A DNA stretch of 64,000 nucleotides from an uncultured Muribaculaceae bacterium. Lineage in GTDB: Bacteria; Pseudomonadota; Alphaproteobacteria; Rs-D84. The translations under genes were made by a program, and so were the position numbers. The stretch covers positions 14,330-78,329 of the forward strand of contig CAYJKO010000002.1 of assembly GCA_964371145.1 (NCBI GenBank), in the 5' to 3' direction. The number at the start of each line of letters is the position of its first letter. The first letter of the stretch is position 1. The notes below the pieces were generated by a model. The model worked only from the letters and a program-made list of their open reading frames with translations. It was not told the origin of the DNA and did not search any database. Shown here in pieces: positions 4,940 through 32,636 of this stretch.

Positions 4940-6244
4940 ATGAAACAATTTTTTATACAAACTTTTGGTTGCCAAATGAACGTGTACGATTCAATTCGTA
5001 TTACGTCTATGTTAATTGACACGGGCTGGGCAAAATGCGACGTGGTCGAAGATGCCGATTTAATCATTTTAAACACCTGCTCTGTTCGCGAAAAAGCAAC
5101 GAACAAGGTTTTTTCCGCATTGGGACGAATTCGTCGTAAAAAAAAGCCTGACGCATTGTTTGGTATTGTCGGATGTGTTGCCCGCGAAGCCGGCGCAGAT
5201 GCTTTCCGACGTATCCCTGAATTGAATTTTGTTCTGGGACCACAAAGTTATCATAAATTGCCAACAATTTTGGAAAATCCAGATTCCAGATTATTAAATA
5301 TCGATCTGGGCGGATTGGAAAAATTTGACGAATTGCCACGGCAAAAAACATCCGACACGGTTGCATTTATTCCAATCCAAGAAGGATGCAATCACGTCTG
5401 TACGTATTGCATTGTGCCGTACACACGCGGGCGTGAATTATCACGACCATTCAATGATGTTATGGCAGATACAATGAATGCGATAAATAATGGCGCTATG
5501 GAAATATATTTTCTGGGTCAAAATGTCAACGGCTATAAATTCACAGATGAAAATGGAAAATTATTTACTTTGGCAGATTTAATAATCGAAACTGCAAAAC
5601 AAGAATCCGTTCATCGCATACGTTTTACGTCCAGTTATCCAACCGAAATGACAGACGAATTAATTGATTTATTCCGTACAGAACCAAAATTGATGCCTCT
5701 TGTTCATCTGCCAATCCAAAGCGGCAGCGCAGATGTTTTAAAAAGAATGAACAGACCATATTCATTAGAATTATATAAAGATATAATTGATAAATTACGT
5801 ATCGCAAATCCAAACATCAAAATTTCATCTGATTTTATAGTTGGTTTCCCCGGTGAAACCGACGCAGATTTTGAACAAACGATGGAAATTGTAAAATACG
5901 TTGGGTATGTAAATTCTTATTCTTTTAAATACAGCCCTCGTCCGCATACGGCAGCGGCATTGATGACAGATCAGATACCTGAAAAAATAAAAGCAGCTCG
6001 TTTGAAAATTTTGGATGATTATTTAAACGTTTTACAACGTGAATTTAATGAATCTTTTATCGACAAAATCATACCTGTTATGTTTGAAAGCATCGACCGT
6101 ACCGGTAATTATTTAATAACCAGAACGCCCCACGGCCAGCAATGCTTGATACCAAAGCCTGATTTCAAATTACCACCCGTTATAAATGTTAAAATAACAT
6201 CTGGGAACAAATCTACTTTACGCGGTGAAATTGTTATCGATTAA
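4940..6244 (+). CDS. miaB: tRNA-i6A37 methylthiotransferase (radical SAM MTTase)
   Basis: 434 aa. N-terminal MTTase domain (FIQTFGCQMN), radical-SAM CxxxCxxC (CTYCIVPYTRG), C-terminal TRAM domain. Confidence 0.85.
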   Translation: MKQFFIQTFGCQMNVYDSIRITSMLIDTGWAKCDVVEDADLIILNTCSVREKATNKVFSALGRIRRKKKPDALFGIVGCVAREAGADAFRRIPELNFVLGPQSYHKLPTILENPDSRLLNIDLGGLEKFDELPRQKTSDTVAFIPIQEGCNHVCTYCIVPYTRGRELSRPFNDVMADTMNAINNGAMEIYFLGQNVNGYKFTDENGKLFTLADLIIETAKQESVHRIRFTSSYPTEMTDELIDLFRTEPKLMPLVHLPIQSGSADVLKRMNRPYSLELYKDIIDKLRIANPNIKISSDFIVGFPGETDADFEQTMEIVKYVGYVNSYSFKYSPRPHTAAALMTDQIPEKIKAARLKILDDYLNVLQREFNESFIDKIIPVMFESIDRTGNYLITRTPHGQQCLIPKPDFKLPPVINVKITSGNKSTLRGEIVID

Positions 6245-7889: not shown

Positions 7890-8453
7890 CTACATTTTAC
7901 AAGGTTTAATCATACCCCATGCGGCTTTATATCCGTTATCGCGGGTAAATATGATTTTATTAAATGCGGTATCTTCTAATGTCATATCCTCAATCCATAA
8001 ATCTTTTGATAATACGCCATGACCATCTGACATAACGGTCGGTGTATCTGCATCAATATATTCTATCTTGCAATCTGATTTATTTGCAGTTTTACATTCA
8101 TATTCTGCGAATTGAATTTCATATGGCACACCAACTCTCATATCTTTTACGTGGAATTTAGCCATCACACCATTTTTTTCGTTGTGCATTTTAACTGTTC
8201 CTATTTCAACAGCTTTGCCGTGTCCGTTTTTAGAATATATCACAGCATGGGTACATTTTACGTCTTTCATATCCATATCTTTCATATCATGATGCATCAT
8301 TTTTTTATCATGCATATTTTGTTTTGCGTGCATTTCGTGTTTTTGATGATGTTCTGACGCGTGTTTTTTATCACCATGATGGCAAGCCGCCAAAACAAAC
8401 ATTGAAAATAAAACGGATGCGAACAATCCTGTGCGTTTAAATAAATTTTTCAT
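7890..8453 (-). CDS. secreted His/Met-rich putative metal-binding protein
   Basis: Start chosen at MKNLFKR.. (GGAG RBS 8 nt upstream), giving 187 aa. Signal peptide, then a His/Met/Asp/Lys-rich low-complexity stretch (HHGDKKHASEHHQKHEMHAKQNMHDKKMMHHDMKDMDMKD) and a Cys-containing globular C-terminus. Confidence 0.5.
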   Translation of the reverse strand: MKNLFKRTGLFASVLFSMFVLAACHHGDKKHASEHHQKHEMHAKQNMHDKKMMHHDMKDMDMKDVKCTHAVIYSKNGHGKAVEIGTVKMHNEKNGVMAKFHVKDMRVGVPYEIQFAEYECKTANKSDCKIEYIDADTPTVMSDGHGVLSKDLWIEDMTLEDTAFNKIIFTRDNGYKAAWGMIKPCKM

Positions 8454-8594
8454 AGATTTCTCCTTTTTTCTTATGAACAATATTATTATATCGCAAAAAA
8501 AGCCTGTTTTCGTTAAGTTATACTTCCTAAATCCCTTGTATAAATTCCTATGAACTGGTACAATGGCTTGAAAATAACAAAAGGACTTTTTAAT

Positions 8595-9503
8595 ATGTTG
8601 CTGGGGATATTGGCCGGTTTTGGAACAACGATTATACATTCTGTATCAAATATATTTGATGCATACATCGTTGAAAAATTTTTCAAAAAAGTTTCAACCG
8701 CTGTTTTCTTTAATGGCATTACTAATATTATCGCGATACCGATTATATTGATGTTCGGGATGCCACAGATGCTGACCGTTGAAGCTTTTGTTTTCATAGC
8801 TATTGCATCTTTAATAGAGGTTTTTTATCAATTTCCATATTATACCGCACTGAAAAAAACCGATACTTCCGTTGTAGTTGCAATGTTTTCATTGGGCAAA
8901 TTATCTATCCCGATTATGGCATATTTTATGTTGGGCGAACAATTGGCACCCATGCAATACTTTGGATTTTTTATCGTAATATTTGCAAATTTATTAATGA
9001 ACCTTACCATTTCAAAAGGCGGGAATAAGAAAAAGCTGTTATTAAATGCAGGATTTATATTAATGCTGATTGTATCCCTTGTCTGTTCTTTCCAGGCCAT
9101 CGTATCTAAAAAAGGATTAATCGAATCGGATTGGGTTACATTTATGTTTTGGTACACAATAATAACCAGCGGGCTTTCTTTTACATTATTGTTTCCATCA
9201 TCCAGCAGATCGGACATAAAAAAATCGACTCCCGTATTTTTCAAAAATTGGAAAACATTTTTTGGTATGGAACTGGCGAATCAAACGGCCGGCATGTTGT
9301 CAAAATATGCATTGATGGTTTTGCCTGTGATGATTTTAAAATCTTTAACATCGACCCAACCTATTTTCTGTTTGATATCAGGATACATTTTATATAAATT
9401 ATTTGGCGACAGATTCAAAGAAAATTTTGATAAAAAAAGCATTCGACGAAAATTGATATTTTTCGCAGTAATTATATTTGGCGTATATTTAACATTAGGA
9501 TAA
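8595..9503 (+). CDS. DMT-superfamily (EamA-like) membrane transporter, paralog 1
   Basis: 302 aa from ATG at 8595 (AAGGA RBS). About 10 predicted TM helices arranged as two half-repeats. Clearly paralogous to the adjacent 9511..10419 ORF. Confidence 0.5.
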   Translation: MLLGILAGFGTTIIHSVSNIFDAYIVEKFFKKVSTAVFFNGITNIIAIPIILMFGMPQMLTVEAFVFIAIASLIEVFYQFPYYTALKKTDTSVVVAMFSLGKLSIPIMAYFMLGEQLAPMQYFGFFIVIFANLLMNLTISKGGNKKKLLLNAGFILMLIVSLVCSFQAIVSKKGLIESDWVTFMFWYTIITSGLSFTLLFPSSSRSDIKKSTPVFFKNWKTFFGMELANQTAGMLSKYALMVLPVMILKSLTSTQPIFCLISGYILYKLFGDRFKENFDKKSIRRKLIFFAVIIFGVYLTLG

Positions 9504-9510
9504 AAAAATA

Positions 9511-10419
9511 ATGAATATTTTAGGAATGATTGCAAATTTTGGGAAAACAATGATATACGGGGTCGTCAATATATTCGATTCATATATTGTAGGGGACGTT
9601 TTCAAACGCAGCGCAACAACCGTATTTTATTACGGATTGACTAATTTAATTGCATTACCCGTTATATTAATGTTTGGCGCACCGTCTATTCCGACATGGC
9701 CTATTGCATTATTGATACTGGCATCATGTTTAATCGAAGTATTATATCAATTCCCATATTATCGATCATTAAAAGAAACCGACACATCTATTGTTATTGC
9801 GATGTTATCGTTTGGCCAAATATTGTTGCCTGTATTTGCTTATTTTATTCTGGGCGAACAAATCACAAATTTTCAATTAATCGGATTTTTCATAGTTATA
9901 TTATTCAGCATGATTTTAAATCTTGGGACCGAGGCTAAATCAAATAAAAAAATAAAATTAAATGCAGCTTTCTTTTTAATGTTTATCGTAGCATTTATAT
10001 TATCGTTTGAAGACGTGATATCTAAAAAAGCATTATTAGAAACCGGTTGGGTTACATTTATGTTTTGGTATGTATTATTAACCAGCTGTCTAAGCGCGGC
10101 TGTATATCTGTATCCAAAAAACAGAGCCGAGATAAAAAAATCATCCGTTGTCTTCAAAAAAAGATGGAAAACTTTTATTGGGATAGAAATTTTAAATCAA
10201 TCCGCCAACATGCTTTCCAGATATGCATTAGCAGTATTGCCAATCATTGCATACAGCGTAATTGACGGATTACAACCATTATTTGTTTTGATATTTGGGA
10301 TTATAATCAGCCGCCTGAAATTATTCAAAGTGCACGAAAAAATCGATTTTAAAAACATCGGAAAAAAAATCATCTGTTTTGGATTTATATTATTGGGTAT
10401 TTATTTAACTGTAATATAA
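9511..10419 (+). CDS. DMT-superfamily (EamA-like) membrane transporter, paralog 2
   Basis: 302 aa, same length and colinear similarity to the upstream ORF (e.g. VNIFDSYIVGDVFKRSATTVFYYGLTNLIALPVILMFG versus SNIFDAYIVEKFFKKVSTAVFFNGITNIIAIPIILMFG). Confidence 0.5.
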   Translation: MNILGMIANFGKTMIYGVVNIFDSYIVGDVFKRSATTVFYYGLTNLIALPVILMFGAPSIPTWPIALLILASCLIEVLYQFPYYRSLKETDTSIVIAMLSFGQILLPVFAYFILGEQITNFQLIGFFIVILFSMILNLGTEAKSNKKIKLNAAFFLMFIVAFILSFEDVISKKALLETGWVTFMFWYVLLTSCLSAAVYLYPKNRAEIKKSSVVFKKRWKTFIGIEILNQSANMLSRYALAVLPIIAYSVIDGLQPLFVLIFGIIISRLKLFKVHEKIDFKNIGKKIICFGFILLGIYLTVI

Positions 10420-27908: not shown

Positions 27909-28412
27909 ATGATAAGCAAACATTTGGCGACTAAAAAATTAGACGAATATTTATTGACCGGGTTACCGATTCGCGAATTCAATGTCAAACCATGTTCAGT
28001 TGAAAAAGATTGGTTTGCAAAATACATTCGTGTCCGACAAGAATTCATAGAATCTTTGGCAGACAACATGGAAGATTTAATATTTTTTAATTTCCCCCAA
28101 GATGTTTTTATGGATTTATTAATGGGCTCAAAAATTCCTGAAAACATTTCTATTCGTCTGCGCGTACCTCTTGTTTGGGGCGGAAAATTAGAAATAGACA
28201 ATATGTTTTTATGCAGAACTTTTAATGATTCTCATAATATGGATAAATTTATTATTTCACAAAGCGCTTTTCAAACGGTATGGTTACCGGACCCTGCAAA
28301 AAAAGTTTATATGTCCACAAATATAGGTGGCGCAGGAGATGGCGGAAATTCCGCCGAAGACAGAATGACTCAAATCGCGATGCAACAAGCCGCTTCAAAG
28401 GGAAGGATTTAA
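27909..28412 (+). CDS. candidate HNH/EndoVII-fold toxin domain protein (variant core)
   Basis: 167 aa. The segment RLRVPLVWGGKLEIDNMFLCRTFNDSHNMDK aligns position-by-position with the HNH core pattern ([28 protein letters not shown]: GG, acidic residue, N-L, LC, N). The canonical first His position is Arg/Val here. Translationally coupled to the ORFs on both sides. Confidence 0.4.
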   Translation: MISKHLATKKLDEYLLTGLPIREFNVKPCSVEKDWFAKYIRVRQEFIESLADNMEDLIFFNFPQDVFMDLLMGSKIPENISIRLRVPLVWGGKLEIDNMFLCRTFNDSHNMDKFIISQSAFQTVWLPDPAKKVYMSTNIGGAGDGGNSAEDRMTQIAMQQAASKGRI

Positions 28413-28415
28413 AAA

Positions 28416-28853
28416 ATGAACGGGAAAGAATTTTCAGACTTTATCAAATCAAACAATGTAAAAATAATACCGCCTTTTGAAGATCGCGAATTAATTTTAA
28501 CAAACGCCGGTCTGCAAAAAATGAGAGCCGCGATATTACCGAATGATTTAATTGAATTGTATAAAAAAGTCGGTGGTTTTAATTTAAACGGTGCATACGT
28601 TTTTGGACCGAAAGAATTTTTACGACAAAATACATCCGCCGTACCGTCTATTATGGAAATCAACAAACAATTGACCGATTTTCAATGTATGCGAGGAAAA
28701 ACCGTATTCGCCAGAAATGATTTATTTTGGTTTGCATTTGATGTGAACGGTGAATTTTTTATGTTAGATAATTTAACATTAAAACCATTAAAAAAATACG
28801 ATAATTTATTTAATGCAATATGCGACTGTTTAACCGTGGGAAGATTAAAATGA
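28416..28853 (+). CDS. SUKH-1 (SMI1/KNR4-like) immunity-protein candidate
   Basis: 145 aa. Carries FED..L...AILPNDLIELYKKVGGFNLNG (the LP.dY..fl...nGg signature) and the C-terminal FWFAFDVNGEFFMLD (f.iA.D..G..f.lD), as in SUKH-1 immunity proteins. Sits directly after the nuclease-like ORF. Confidence 0.5.
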   Translation: MNGKEFSDFIKSNNVKIIPPFEDRELILTNAGLQKMRAAILPNDLIELYKKVGGFNLNGAYVFGPKEFLRQNTSAVPSIMEINKQLTDFQCMRGKTVFARNDLFWFAFDVNGEFFMLDNLTLKPLKKYDNLFNAICDCLTVGRLK

Positions 28854-29062
28854 AAAAATTATCCGTAGTATTAAATGGACACCAAACAAGCATTTCATTA
28901 GAAGAAATTTTTATTGAAACATTAAAAAATATCGCAAAAAAAGAAAACACATCTATTGCGTCCATTATAAACAAAATAGATTCCGCACGCACGGGCAATT
29001 CTAATTTATCATCTGAAATCCGCATATGGATTATGAATTATTTATTACACAACAAAAATTGA
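28850..29062 (+). CDS. ribbon-helix-helix domain protein (COG4321-like)
   Basis: Start at MKKLSVVLNGHQTSISLEEIFIETLKNIAKKENTSIASIINKID.. (70 aa). Matches the alphaproteobacterial small RHH family pattern (S..L.GH.TS..LE..F...L...A...g.S...li..iD). Overlaps the previous stop by 4 nt (ATGA). Confidence 0.5.
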   Translation: MKKLSVVLNGHQTSISLEEIFIETLKNIAKKENTSIASIINKIDSARTGNSNLSSEIRIWIMNYLLHNKN

Positions 29063-29077
29063 TGTATCCGGCAAAAT

Positions 29078-31030
29078 TCAAGACTTATAAGATTTTCGCA
29101 CACAATAAAATACATATATCAATATTGATGAAAATGCAAATATAATTAACATCATTAAATCACGTCCAATTGAACGATATATTGTATTGTGCCCCTGACC
29201 TATTTCACCATCTAAAACGCCAATTGCTCCAATTGGCAATTGCGCCATTATTTCACCATTTGATGACACAAATGCGCTGATGCCGGAAAAATTAGCACGC
29301 ACAATCGGTAATCCTGATTCTATTGCATATCTGCGCACCATATCCAAATGTTGAAAACTTCCCTGGGTTTTACCAAACCAAATATCATTTGTAATGTTTA
29401 TTATAACTTGCGGTGTTTTGTTTGAATTTTTCGGGATTAACGAATCGGTAAAAACAATTTCATAACATATAGCGGGTGCAAAGTTGAATGATATATCATC
29501 ATCTAACTTTAATTCTATTATCTCTGGGCCAACTCCGCTGGATAATTGACCAGGTGTTGGAATTATATCGCCAAAGGGTCTGTATTCGCCGAATGGAACC
29601 AAATGTGATTTATTATATATTTTTTCTATATGCCCGTTTTTATCCGCAACAATCATAGAATTATATAAATGTCCATTTTTGTAACTGGTTGCACCCGTTA
29701 TTATTGTTGTATTTAATATTTTTGCCATGGGCAAATAATCATCTGTTACAACATATGGATATGTTGTTTCTGGAAAAACAATTAAATCAAATTTTTTATC
29801 ATCCGAATTTGACATAGATATTAATTTTTGAACATTACGTTCGCTTGATTGTCTTAAATGTTGCGGCAAATGACTTTCTTTGTCTTCGGCAGAAAAAGAC
29901 GGTTGCACTATTCTGACAGATATTTTTTCTTCGGGTGATGCGGTGTTTGATTTTTCAATATTTGCGTGCCCCACAAAAACGCCTATGACAATTAAAGATA
30001 AAAATATCACAAATGTTATTTTATTTTGTCTGTTACGTTTCATAATTAAATCTACCACACTTGCAATTAAACCAATTAAAACAAAAGACAAACCCAATGC
30101 GCCCCACATCGACATAGAATTAGATAACAATGGGCACGGCAAAGAAATATTTGCAAATGGATTCCATGGGAAACCTGTCAACAACCATTCGCGTAACCAT
30201 AAAACAAATGTCCAAAAAAATGCGAATAAAATTGATGAACCCGGTAAAAAACGCCGTGCACGCGCCATCAATACAAATGGAGTTGAAAAAATTATACCCC
30301 CGAAAAAAGCAATACCAATTAATGATGGAATTGTCCATATTGCAAATTGAGCCGCCAATTCGGGAATTACATATATTGAATTCAACATCCACCAAAACAT
30401 AGACAAAGCATATATGGATGCAAATGGCATAATTTTTACGAATGATTTATAAACAGAATTTTTATCATCATCTTTAACGGTTAAATAATACGCCCCACCT
30501 ATTCCAATTAAAGATAAAAACCACATATTATATGGCGCAAATCCAAGAGATGCAAATCCACCGCATACGGCTAAAATTAAGATACGCATCCAATCTTTGT
30601 TTTTTTCTTTATATGGATTTTTTATGTTTAATTTCTTTAATATTTTAATCTCTGCTGTCTCCATTTTGTTTGCATCTTTATCGTCCAAATGGTCAAAGCC
30701 CAATAAATGCAAAGCGCCATGTACAATTAAATGAATGGTGTGATTTTCTATCGTTTTATTTTGTTCTGCGGCTTCACGAATAACCGTATCAATTGATATA
30801 TATACATCACCCAACAATTCATCATCGCCCATTTCAAAAGACAAAACATTTGTCGGTTTATCAAATCCCCGATATTTTTTATTTAATTTTCGAATCTCGG
30901 CATCATTTGTAAAAACTATTGATAGTTCAGCATTTTTATTATGCGCGATATCTATTTTTGATATAATTTTATCTGTATCAATATTATATTCATTCCATCT
31001 TTTATCGGTAATATCTATATACGCTTTCAT
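29078..31030 (-). CDS. ybeY-lnt: fusion protein: rRNA maturation RNase YbeY (N-terminal) and apolipoprotein N-acyltransferase Lnt (C-terminal)
   Basis: 650-aa continuous ORF. Residues about 1-140 are YbeY (ELSIVFTNDAEIRKLNKKYRGFDKPTNVLSF.. HTIHLIVHGALHLLGFDHLDD, the H3xH5xH zinc motif). The rest is Lnt: multi-TM N-domain, then a CN-hydrolase domain (..LIVFPETTYP.., ..NKSHLVPFGEYRP.., ..CYEIVF..). Confidence 0.75.
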   Translation of the reverse strand: MKAYIDITDKRWNEYNIDTDKIISKIDIAHNKNAELSIVFTNDAEIRKLNKKYRGFDKPTNVLSFEMGDDELLGDVYISIDTVIREAAEQNKTIENHTIHLIVHGALHLLGFDHLDDKDANKMETAEIKILKKLNIKNPYKEKNKDWMRILILAVCGGFASLGFAPYNMWFLSLIGIGGAYYLTVKDDDKNSVYKSFVKIMPFASIYALSMFWWMLNSIYVIPELAAQFAIWTIPSLIGIAFFGGIIFSTPFVLMARARRFLPGSSILFAFFWTFVLWLREWLLTGFPWNPFANISLPCPLLSNSMSMWGALGLSFVLIGLIASVVDLIMKRNRQNKITFVIFLSLIVIGVFVGHANIEKSNTASPEEKISVRIVQPSFSAEDKESHLPQHLRQSSERNVQKLISMSNSDDKKFDLIVFPETTYPYVVTDDYLPMAKILNTTIITGATSYKNGHLYNSMIVADKNGHIEKIYNKSHLVPFGEYRPFGDIIPTPGQLSSGVGPEIIELKLDDDISFNFAPAICYEIVFTDSLIPKNSNKTPQVIINITNDIWFGKTQGSFQHLDMVRRYAIESGLPIVRANFSGISAFVSSNGEIMAQLPIGAIGVLDGEIGQGHNTIYRSIGRDLMMLIIFAFSSILIYVFYCVRKSYKS

Positions 31031-31031
31031 A

Positions 31032-32636
31032 TTATTTTTCTTTTAATTTTTGTTTTAAATTGTCTAATTTTTTATCAAAACTTTTTTTATTCTTTTTTGA
31101 AATTTTAAAGTTTTGTTTGGCTGCATTTAATTCTTTTTCGGCCGCAACATATTCTTCTTTATCCATTAAATATTTCGCTTTTTTTAAACGCAGTTCTGCG
31201 GCGGAAAAATACAATTCTGCTTTTTCTTCATCTTCGAATTCTGCGCCAGACAAATTAAATAAAGCGCGTCTTATTTCTATCATTGCTGAATCCAATTTAT
31301 TTTCTTTGACTGCGCCAAAGAAATTTGTAGCATTATCGATTTTATTATCAATCAAATCTAAAACGGAATCTTTTTTTATTTTGTTAATTTGAGATTTTGA
31401 AACATAAAAGTCTGATGGCACTGATTGATTTTCCAAACACGATATCATATATTCCCACCCCGGAATAGTTTTTTGATTTAATCTTTCACGCAAAGTCATA
31501 TCTGATTTATGTTGACGTCCCGACATCATCTTTTCGATAAATTCTTTACTGAAATCAAATTCATCATTTTTTATAACCTCGCGATAATTTATTGCAAAAA
31601 AACCATCTATATATGCATCTAAAAATTGTTTTGAATTAATTTGTCCTGTTGCCAATGCGGCGCATACCCAACGTTTATTAATTGTACCAGGATATTTGCT
31701 TTTGGCACCTGCCCCATACATAAAGGAATTTGCTTTTTGTTCATCAGACTTATTTCCGTTAAATCCATTTTTGCAAATAGATTTTAAATGACCCGGCAAT
31801 TGATATCCCGCTATGCATAAAGCCAGATAATCATTAATTGAAATGGGATCGGACAAATTATTTTTTAACAATCTGAACAAACTGGCCTTATCTGTTTGCC
31901 CCATTGACGTATATGTCGTAGATGTACAATAATCAAATCCCAATTTTTTACCAATGGTATCATTTACATTTATATTCGGTAAAGATTGGCCGGGACGTCC
32001 ATTTTTTCTAGAAATTTGTCTTTCGAAATTTATTTCATTATTTTTATCCACAGGCCAAAAATATGTAACACCCGGACCATATGTATAAACATTTTCTGCC
32101 CGATTTACTTTTGGTGTTTTATAATATGTTTCGGCGTACAAAATCGCAGGATACAAAACATCAAACAAAGCGGCACATTGCCCCAGAAAATCTTCTGAAT
32201 TTGGATCCAATATTTTTTCATTAAAATCTATATTTCCTTTTTCTGTTTTCTTTACCTCGGTTTTAATCTGCGAAGCCATATCCTTGGCAGAATCCGCCGT
32301 ATAGAAGCCTGCGAACATTAATAACGGAATAGAATAATACAAAATATGAGCAGATAAATTCGGATGTTTTTTGGCAAAATATTTTAATCCAACGGATTTG
32401 TCCATATCGGGGTTTGTTTTTGAAAATACATCCTCTAATTTTCTTAAAATTTTATTATCAACCGCCAATAAACGGGTCGCCCAAAACATAAATTGAGTTA
32501 TTCCTGCGACACCCATTGCCGATTTTTTTATAACTTCTCCGCCAATATTTTTAGCCTTTAACTTACCGACATTTTTTCTGAAATTTCTTGCCAAGTTTTC
32601 CGGTTTTTTTACATTTTTTGTAAATTTATCTGACAT
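31032..32636 (-). CDS. hypothetical protein with C-terminal coiled-coil
   Basis: 534 aa with no recognisable catalytic motifs. A short N-terminal hydrophobic segment. C-terminal charged coiled-coil/TPR-like stretch (..EEKAELYFSAAELRLKKAKYLMDKEEYVAAEKELNAAKQNFK..). Its stop lies 1 nt from the ybeY-lnt start. Confidence 0.45.
   Translation of the reverse strand: MSDKFTKNVKKPENLARNFRKNVGKLKAKNIGGEVIKKSAMGVAGITQFMFWATRLLAVDNKILRKLEDVFSKTNPDMDKSVGLKYFAKKHPNLSAHILYYSIPLLMFAGFYTADSAKDMASQIKTEVKKTEKGNIDFNEKILDPNSEDFLGQCAALFDVLYPAILYAETYYKTPKVNRAENVYTYGPGVTYFWPVDKNNEINFERQISRKNGRPGQSLPNINVNDTIGKKLGFDYCTSTTYTSMGQTDKASLFRLLKNNLSDPISINDYLALCIAGYQLPGHLKSICKNGFNGNKSDEQKANSFMYGAGAKSKYPGTINKRWVCAALATGQINSKQFLDAYIDGFFAINYREVIKNDEFDFSKEFIEKMMSGRQHKSDMTLRERLNQKTIPGWEYMISCLENQSVPSDFYVSKSQINKIKKDSVLDLIDNKIDNATNFFGAVKENKLDSAMIEIRRALFNLSGAEFEDEEKAELYFSAAELRLKKAKYLMDKEEYVAAEKELNAAKQNFKISKKNKKSFDKKLDNLKQKLKEK

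Follow-up and report, generated by a model that had tools for sequence, protein, structure and literature searches.

An in-frame fusion of YbeY and apolipoprotein N-acyltransferase in an uncultured alphaproteobacterium and its relatives

Why should a nuclease of ribosome maturation share one reading frame with a membrane enzyme of lipoprotein maturation? This question is raised by a 64,000-nucleotide (nt) stretch of contig CAYJKO010000002.1 (assembly GCA_964371145.1, positions 14,330 to 78,329 of the forward strand), referred to here as the window. YbeY is a zinc-dependent single-strand endoribonuclease and a maturation factor of the 30S subunit, and Lnt, the apolipoprotein N-acyltransferase, has to our knowledge no link to ribosomes. 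An original prediction, made from the sequence of the window, had placed a complete YbeY and a complete Lnt in a single open reading frame (ORF) of 650 amino acids (aa), and had named a lost stop codon or frameshift near position 30600 as what would undo it. The answer that emerges is that the gene likely encodes a stable, vertically inherited bifunctional protein with two independent activities, created by operon compaction in a reduced genome.

The fused protein and its relatives

The ORF occupies the minus strand and is composed of the following parts, where TM stands for transmembrane helix:

29078..31030, minus strand: YbeY-Lnt fusion ORF, 650 aa, with an ATG start and its stop at 29078-29080
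30611..31030, minus strand: YbeY endoribonuclease module, residues 1-140, ending at a conserved NPY (138-140)
30689..30721, minus strand: zinc-binding motif H104-GAL-H108-LLGFD-H114 (HGALHLLGFDH), read directly from the sequence
30590..30610, minus strand: lysine-rich linker KEKNKDW, residues 141-147, of the family's shortest class
30587..30589, minus strand: Met148 codon, aligning with residue 12 of Escherichia coli Lnt
29936..30589, minus strand: Lnt membrane domain, residues 148-365, with predicted TM1-TM7 (LNT_N and model helices)
29186..29935, minus strand: Lnt periplasmic CN-hydrolase (nitrilase-like) domain, residues 366-615 (PF00795)
29768-29770, 29609-29611 and 29465-29467, minus strand: catalytic E421, K474 and C522, within the CN-hydrolase domain
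29081..29185, minus strand: C-terminal segment with TM8, residues 616-650 (model helix 623-649), matching the C-terminal helix of E. coli Lnt

Reading of the sequence reveals neither a stop nor a frame break between these limits, and the single 650-aa ORF is thereby borne out, as it is by the ORF list; the linker falls at the junction position that had been estimated. Pfam identifies YbeY at residues 28-134 (PF02130, E 7.6e-35; 120 bits against a cut-off of 25, which places the module in the YbeY (UPF0054) family), LNT_N at 157-319 (PF20154) and CN_hydrolase at 395-610 (PF00795, E 6.4e-28), the latter two also exceeding their cut-offs. The NCBIfam equivalogs agree, with 128.6 bits for YbeY (TIGR00043, cut-off 45) and 244.3 bits for lnt (TIGR00546, cut-off 132.9). 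LNT_N and CN_hydrolase are the sole C-terminal domains, and no Era GTPase or KH domain was detected by Pfam in the 650-aa protein. Aligned to the E. coli proteins, the N-terminal part covers residues 37-151 of the 155 residues of YbeY and the C-terminal part residues 12-504 of the 512 residues of Lnt, the Lnt part being alignable to E. coli and Pseudomonas aeruginosa Lnt from TM1 on. The zinc motif, located as predicted at residues 104-114, lines up with HGSLHLLGYDH of E. coli YbeY, while E421, K474 and C522 fall, in the alignment with E. coli Lnt, on the WPE, YNKNHLVPFGE and ICYE motifs of that enzyme (catalytic triad E267/K335/C387; PMC5500888). Because both modules align nearly end to end with solved E. 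coli proteins, both are complete, YbeY reaching its natural C-terminal NPY, and the two-module architecture lies far beyond what would be expected by chance.

An AlphaFold (AF2) model computed on the alignment has a mean predicted local distance difference test (pLDDT) score of 80.6 and a predicted TM-score (pTM) of 0.71, with pLDDT mostly between 76 and 90 in YbeY residues 1-140. Seven model helices (145-164, 170-186, 193-219, 223-258, 265-285, 306-330 and 334-361) are followed by a beta-rich domain (370-610), which lies between the seventh helix and the last one (623-649); this is the eight-TM architecture of Lnt with the CN-hydrolase domain inserted between TM7 and TM8. In Foldseek comparisons, target-normalised TM-scores of 0.73-0.76 were obtained against Lnt structures, and the N-terminal domain matched E. 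coli YbeY (1xm5; target-normalised TM-score 0.80, rmsd 2.7-2.8 Å, 36-37% identity) as well as 1oz9; no solved chain spanning both halves was found in this search. Published Lnt structures exhibit eight TM helices, two cytoplasmic termini and a periplasmic nitrilase-like domain (PMC5500888). Since this topology places the N-terminus in the cytoplasm and TM1 begins the Lnt half, YbeY should, by homology, be cytoplasmic and only a few residues away from the membrane surface, which supports the membrane tethering that had been proposed.

The fusion recurs widely among relatives. A search over 5.8 billion protein clusters listed the identical protein and 119 others, hence at least 120 clusters. The 119 further clusters comprise proteins of 637-703 aa that are 49-61% identical to the window protein at 96-100% coverage, all 119 carry PF02130, PF20154 and PF00795, and the cluster members are drawn from NCBI, JGI, ENA and Logan assemblies. 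A genome scan with one genome per species and author-built hidden Markov models (HMMs) of YbeY and Lnt found both models to strike one ORF in seven species-level genomes (L001-L007), which are metagenome-assembled genomes (MAGs) from rumen, caecum and gut labelled Alphaproteobacteria bacterium, Rickettsiales bacterium or Candidatus Enterousia sp. Six of these (L001-L006) share the flanking genes with the window in the same order: MgsA, a variable protein of ~530 aa, the fusion, then a ribbon-helix-helix (RHH) protein, a SUKH protein and a 167-aa protein, on to TrmB. An exhaustive HMMER search of 1.84 billion representatives of 50%-identity clusters returned ~8 full-length fused representatives, below which ordinary Lnt proteins of 480-550 aa follow. 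More distant fusions, confirmed by Pfam, are found at 34-45% identity. Among them, P0136 and P0139 (34-36% identity) are genuine fusions in other genomic contexts: P0136 directly follows miaB and is present identically in two NCBI assemblies and an independent sequencing run, and P0139 sits between mlaD and dksA. As a lost stop in one assembly cannot account for both the shared synteny and the recurrence, the fusion is inherited, a lineage-wide architecture and not a peculiarity of the window genome.

Both halves have been conserved to a similar degree. In motif and identity counts over 120 homologs, complemented by an alignment of 24 sequences (A1), mean pairwise identity amounts to 63% in YbeY, 18% in the linker, 54% in the Lnt TM domain and 62% in the Lnt CN-hydrolase domain. 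H104/H108/H114 and E421/K474/C522 are invariant in A1, the HxxxHxxxxxH pattern occurs in 119/120 homologs, the Lnt E/K/C motifs in 120/120, and the invariant YbeY block R54...TNVLSFE is kept. These patterns indicate that both halves are under selection, with YbeY as conserved as the Lnt catalytic domain.

The linker is variable. Taken as the segment between NPY and approximately the beginning of TM1, it spans 4-39 aa across 117 homologs, the window protein scoring 5 (KEKNK). The equivalent of Met148 is W, F, L or Q in other family members of A1, no Shine-Dalgarno (SD)-like match lies upstream of Met148 in GAAAAAAACAAAGA, and no conserved in-frame internal start was found in the junction region among the aligned homologs; Met148 may descend from the codon at which the ancestral lnt began. 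A Cys-rich linker of ~30 aa separates YbeY from TM1 of Lnt in about half of the homologs (55/117 have at least 3 Cys), in forms such as C-x-D-x-S-C-C-P-G or CDCECDCEYGCCCC and with up to 8 Cys in the tabulated homologs. Its carriers include L001, L002, L004, L006, P0094, P0110, P0112 and P0117; in L002 the linker, at about 8409-8600, reads NPYADECNCGCGGKCNCVDCKCKNCSCCNCPG. A basic amphipathic segment, for example KFISWLKKLKIREN, comes next after the Cys-rich stretch, and the insert looks like a metal-binding or membrane-docking element. The window protein is devoid of it.

All database sources name these proteins only "apolipoprotein N-acyltransferase", and surveys based on names will consequently score the lineage, wrongly, as devoid of the near-universal ybeY. 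The three-domain architecture is already visible in precomputed domain tables. No description of a YbeY-Lnt fusion was found in the literature consulted, and an earlier mention may exist. With both enzymes belonging to textbook families, the fusion is a real but modest evolutionary novelty.

Probable origin by operon compaction

A survey of 80 alphaproteobacterial loci shows from which arrangement the fusion may have arisen. In 54 of the 80 loci, ybeY is followed by corC and then by lnt, as the original prediction had stated for the usual alphaproteobacterial layout; the intervening gene was verified as CBS+CorC_HlyC, with PhoH upstream, in two examples (L014 and L017). Separate ybeY and lnt ORFs abut without corC in five loci, seven carry the fused single ORF, and in the remaining 14 loci lnt has no ybeY in its upstream flank. 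At one abutting locus, L008, the junction reads ...NPYQE-stop-R-M-LVKL..., so that the lnt start lies two codons past the ybeY stop in the same frame, and at another, L011, a single in-frame stop separates the two genes. Loss of such a stop would give a junction very like that of the window, NPYKEKNKDWMRIL. In the tree described below, these abutting loci do not form the sister group of the fusion clade; they show what a precursor may have looked like and should not be taken for the ancestor itself. L008 (CAVBCV010000004.1) is labelled "Lachnospiraceae bacterium", yet it carries an alphaproteobacterial-type ybeY abutting lnt. Because a Firmicutes genome would not be expected to encode Lnt, contamination or a wrong label of the bin is probable.

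The genomic background is consistent with compaction. Candidatus Enterousia belongs to the GTDB order Rs-D84, whose members live in animal guts and have genomes below ~1 Mbp (PMC12306168), and gene loss and compaction are expected in this lineage. The GC content of the window (35.6%) is consistent with it.

The favoured explanation starts from an ancestral ybeY-corC-lnt cluster which would first have lost corC, bringing ybeY to abut lnt, and next the ybeY stop codon, yielding one polypeptide. Both losses would most likely have occurred in the gut-associated, genome-reduced lineage of Candidatus Enterousia and its relatives within Rs-D84. In the resulting protein, a complete cytoplasmic YbeY would be joined head to tail, via a linker of ~7 residues, to the cytoplasmic N-terminus of Lnt and would be tethered a few nanometres from the inner membrane, with the Lnt catalytic domain facing the periplasm. 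The polypeptide would presumably stay uncleaved and the two activities would be mechanistically independent, so that the fusion would mainly represent compaction and fixed co-expression and not a new joint reaction. If so, the locus offers an example of stepwise operon compaction, through corC loss, abutment and stop-codon loss, in a lineage with genomes below 1 Mbp.

Several observations weigh against this explanation. A neighbour-joining (NJ) tree of Lnt domains, which is a rough distance tree with long branches and was used only for the question of a single event, recovers the main fused clade as monophyletic, but the unfused Lnts P0133, P0135, P0137, P0138 and P0145 nest among the fused ones, and the gene upstream of these nested Lnts is not ybeY. 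Because unfused Lnts nest among fused lineages, the rough tree suggests more than one fusion, or a later fission, instead of a single simple event. At the level of the protein, the very short linker of the window protein may limit the access of 30S particles to the YbeY active site, and the fused copy is credited with YbeY function from its conservation only. The ~30-aa Cys-rich linker of about half of the relatives hints at a function of the junction beyond neutral compaction, and linker cleavage or internal initiation may occur, as discussed in the next section.

Genes of ~175 aa upstream of P0133 and P0137 were considered as divergent YbeY and rejected, as they gave no Pfam match at E <= 1 and no BLASTP alignment. 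The "Rickettsiales bacterium" MAG with the nearest unfused Lnt, P0133, also carries loci for a Cas9 of at least ~990 aa (HNH_4, Cas9_RuvC, RuvC_III) ~2 kb downstream of lnt (L085, 5195-8080; L086, 5106-7991).

Competing explanations

The best surviving competitor, although unlikely, is a functional coupling of the "Rosetta stone" type, in which YbeY acts at the membrane together with Lnt and the fusion fixes an association already hinted at by the ybeZ-ybeY-corC-lnt operon, for example by tying 30S maturation or ribosome quality control to lipoprotein or envelope biogenesis. The linkage of ybeZYX to lnt is ancient and, in E. coli, familiar as an operon, ybeY-corC-lnt is the dominant alphaproteobacterial layout, and fused proteins occur in at least three genomic contexts and are not cleanly monophyletic, which means that the fusion could have arisen repeatedly. 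Published work takes the YbeY-Era fusion to signal a true partnership and calls it enigmatic that ybeY is repeatedly syntenic with genes of metabolic enzymes, dagK among them (PMC10582724). The Cys-rich linker with its amphipathic stretch likewise suggests an elaborated junction in about half of the relatives. These arguments are opposed by the position of the active sites, which face different sides of the membrane, by a report that E. coli lnt is under a different sigma factor than ybeZYX, and by a linker conserved in neither length nor sequence. The fused clade is narrow, with only the ~8 full-length representatives recovered from the 1.84 billion, its genomes are reduced, so that neutral compaction is expected (PMC12306168), and no experiment or paper joining YbeY and Lnt functionally was found in the literature. 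Slightly less likely still is a more specific proposal, in which YbeY, acting in small-subunit maturation or quality control, and Lnt, catalysing the final step of lipoprotein maturation, are real partners at the inner membrane, both physically and functionally, and the fusion is the record of this. If true, it would explain why ybeY is kept beside lnt, and beside lipid enzymes such as dagK in other phyla, and the Cys-rich linker would regulate the coupling as a metal-binding or membrane-docking element.

It is also improbable, to a somewhat greater degree, that two proteins are made from the one ORF, either by cleavage of the linker or by an internal Lnt start such as Met148, leaving YbeY free in the cytoplasm. 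In alignment, Met148 falls in the region where standalone Lnt begins, which resembles the arrangement at L008, and the linker of 21 of the 117 homologs contains a Met; neither the Met nor an SD-like motif is conserved, however. Internal initiation would in any case yield a free Lnt and not a free YbeY, and the window linker of ~5-7 residues lacks a conserved cleavage motif. Furthermore, the promoter-like site at 30556-30527 falls downstream of Met148, and the promoter and terminator scan of the region, with site counts at chance level, gave no support for an internal promoter.

Very little room is left for the view that YbeY has ceased to act as an RNase in the fusion and is now only a cytoplasmic accessory domain of Lnt, with another gene supplying YbeY function. 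The zinc triad is intact in all but one of the 120 homologs, the R54...TNVLSFE block is retained in a module that is 63% identical on average, a redundant ybeY copy is unlikely in genomes below ~1 Mbp (PMC12306168), and no second YbeY match was found in the 64-kb window.

Finally, a sequencing or assembly error that deleted a stop or shifted the frame between two ordinary genes is refuted, given at least 120 diverged clusters with the same architecture from independent projects, the single ORF in seven species-representative genomes, the identity of P0136 in two assemblies and a separate read-set assembly, and the conserved synteny around the fusion.

Genomic context and known systems

The fusion is inherited and more plausibly a result of compaction than a new mechanism; its surroundings in the window are as follows:

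31032..32636, minus strand: lineage-specific gene of 534 aa upstream of the fusion, stop codon at 31032-31034
28820-29062, plus strand: RHH_4 ribbon-helix-helix protein, 80 aa (Pfam)
28416-28853, plus strand: SUKH/SMI1-KNR4-like protein, 145 aa (weak Pfam match)
27909-28412, plus strand: protein of 167 aa without a Pfam match
4940-6244, plus strand: MiaB-like radical-SAM gene (UPF0004 and Radical_SAM), ~23 kb from ybeY-lnt

The stop of the 534-aa gene ends 1 nt before the ATG of the fusion, and because only this nucleotide parts them, co-transcription and translational coupling of the two genes are probable. Upstream of the 534-aa gene lies the best promoter-like site (32705-32678, minus strand), in a region where such sites are no more numerous than chance would give. 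The 534-aa protein is hydrophobic in segments of its N-terminal part and ends in a coiled region rich in Lys and Glu; its only Pfam match is a weak, sub-threshold one to DUF5667, and it is 26-30% identical to its counterparts at the same position in L001, L002 and L006.

The RHH_4, SUKH and 167-aa genes form a trio (27909-29062, plus strand) convergent to the fusion, which is found at the same position in L001-L004 and L006 with 44-67% identity; the 167-aa and SUKH genes are also present elsewhere in L005. SUKH domains are often immunity proteins. In the Candidatus Enterousia sp. MAG (L006), a 97-aa ORF (10014-10304) directly after the fused gene matches Lnt HMM positions 118-192 with 112 bits; it is either a partial duplication of lnt or an assembly repeat.

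A miaB-phoH-ybeY-corC-lnt cluster, with miaB in first position, is found in many bacteria. The window contains a MiaB-like gene but no homolog of corC or phoH in its 64 kb (tblastn, E 1e-3), in agreement with the absence of corC stated in the original prediction, which implies that the classical cluster has been broken up. If the fused ybeY is the only copy, a universally conserved 30S maturation factor would work while fixed to the membrane by a linker of ~7 residues, and this would constrain models of the site and mode of its contact with pre-30S particles, uS11 and Era. The fusion furthermore offers a clue as to why ybeY is syntenic with lnt and with genes of further membrane or lipid enzymes, a relation that was noted long ago but has lacked an explanation.

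The closest known systems are the E. coli ybeZ-ybeY-ybeX(corC)-lnt and the alphaproteobacterial phoH-ybeY-corC-lnt operons, which encode both enzymes in the order and orientation found in the window, with ybeY upstream of lnt; by the NCBIfam equivalog models, both modules of the fusion are full-length orthologs. In contrast to these operons, the window is devoid of corC and of a nearby phoH, the ybeY stop is lost and the products are covalently joined. Fusions of YbeY to Era have been described in some Clostridia, Selenomonadales and Thermoleophilum; there, too, YbeY is N-terminal and joined to the product of a frequent neighbour gene (PMC10582724). Era, however, is a soluble GTPase of ribosome assembly with which YbeY is known to associate physically, whereas Lnt is a lipid-modifying enzyme integral to the membrane.

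Fusions on the side of Lnt have precedents as well. Mycobacterial Ppm1 consists of an Lnt-like domain fused to polyprenol-phosphate-mannose synthase. In the representative search, P0179 (816 aa) combines a full Lnt (19-503) with a C-terminal aminoglycoside/choline-kinase-like APH domain (PF01636, 535-733). These two proteins show that a further catalytic domain on the cytoplasmic side can be accommodated at one end of Lnt. In both Ppm1 and P0179 the partners are C-terminal and are lipid, sugar or kinase enzymes, whereas the partner in the window protein is N-terminal and processes RNA. Membrane-anchored RNases, finally, are exemplified by E. coli RNase E, which is held by an amphipathic helix, and Bacillus subtilis RNase Y, which is held by a TM helix. 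Both are precedents for RNA processing, including rRNA steps, by nucleases kept at the inner membrane; their anchors are short and dedicated, whereas the anchor of YbeY in the window protein is a complete and independently essential enzyme.

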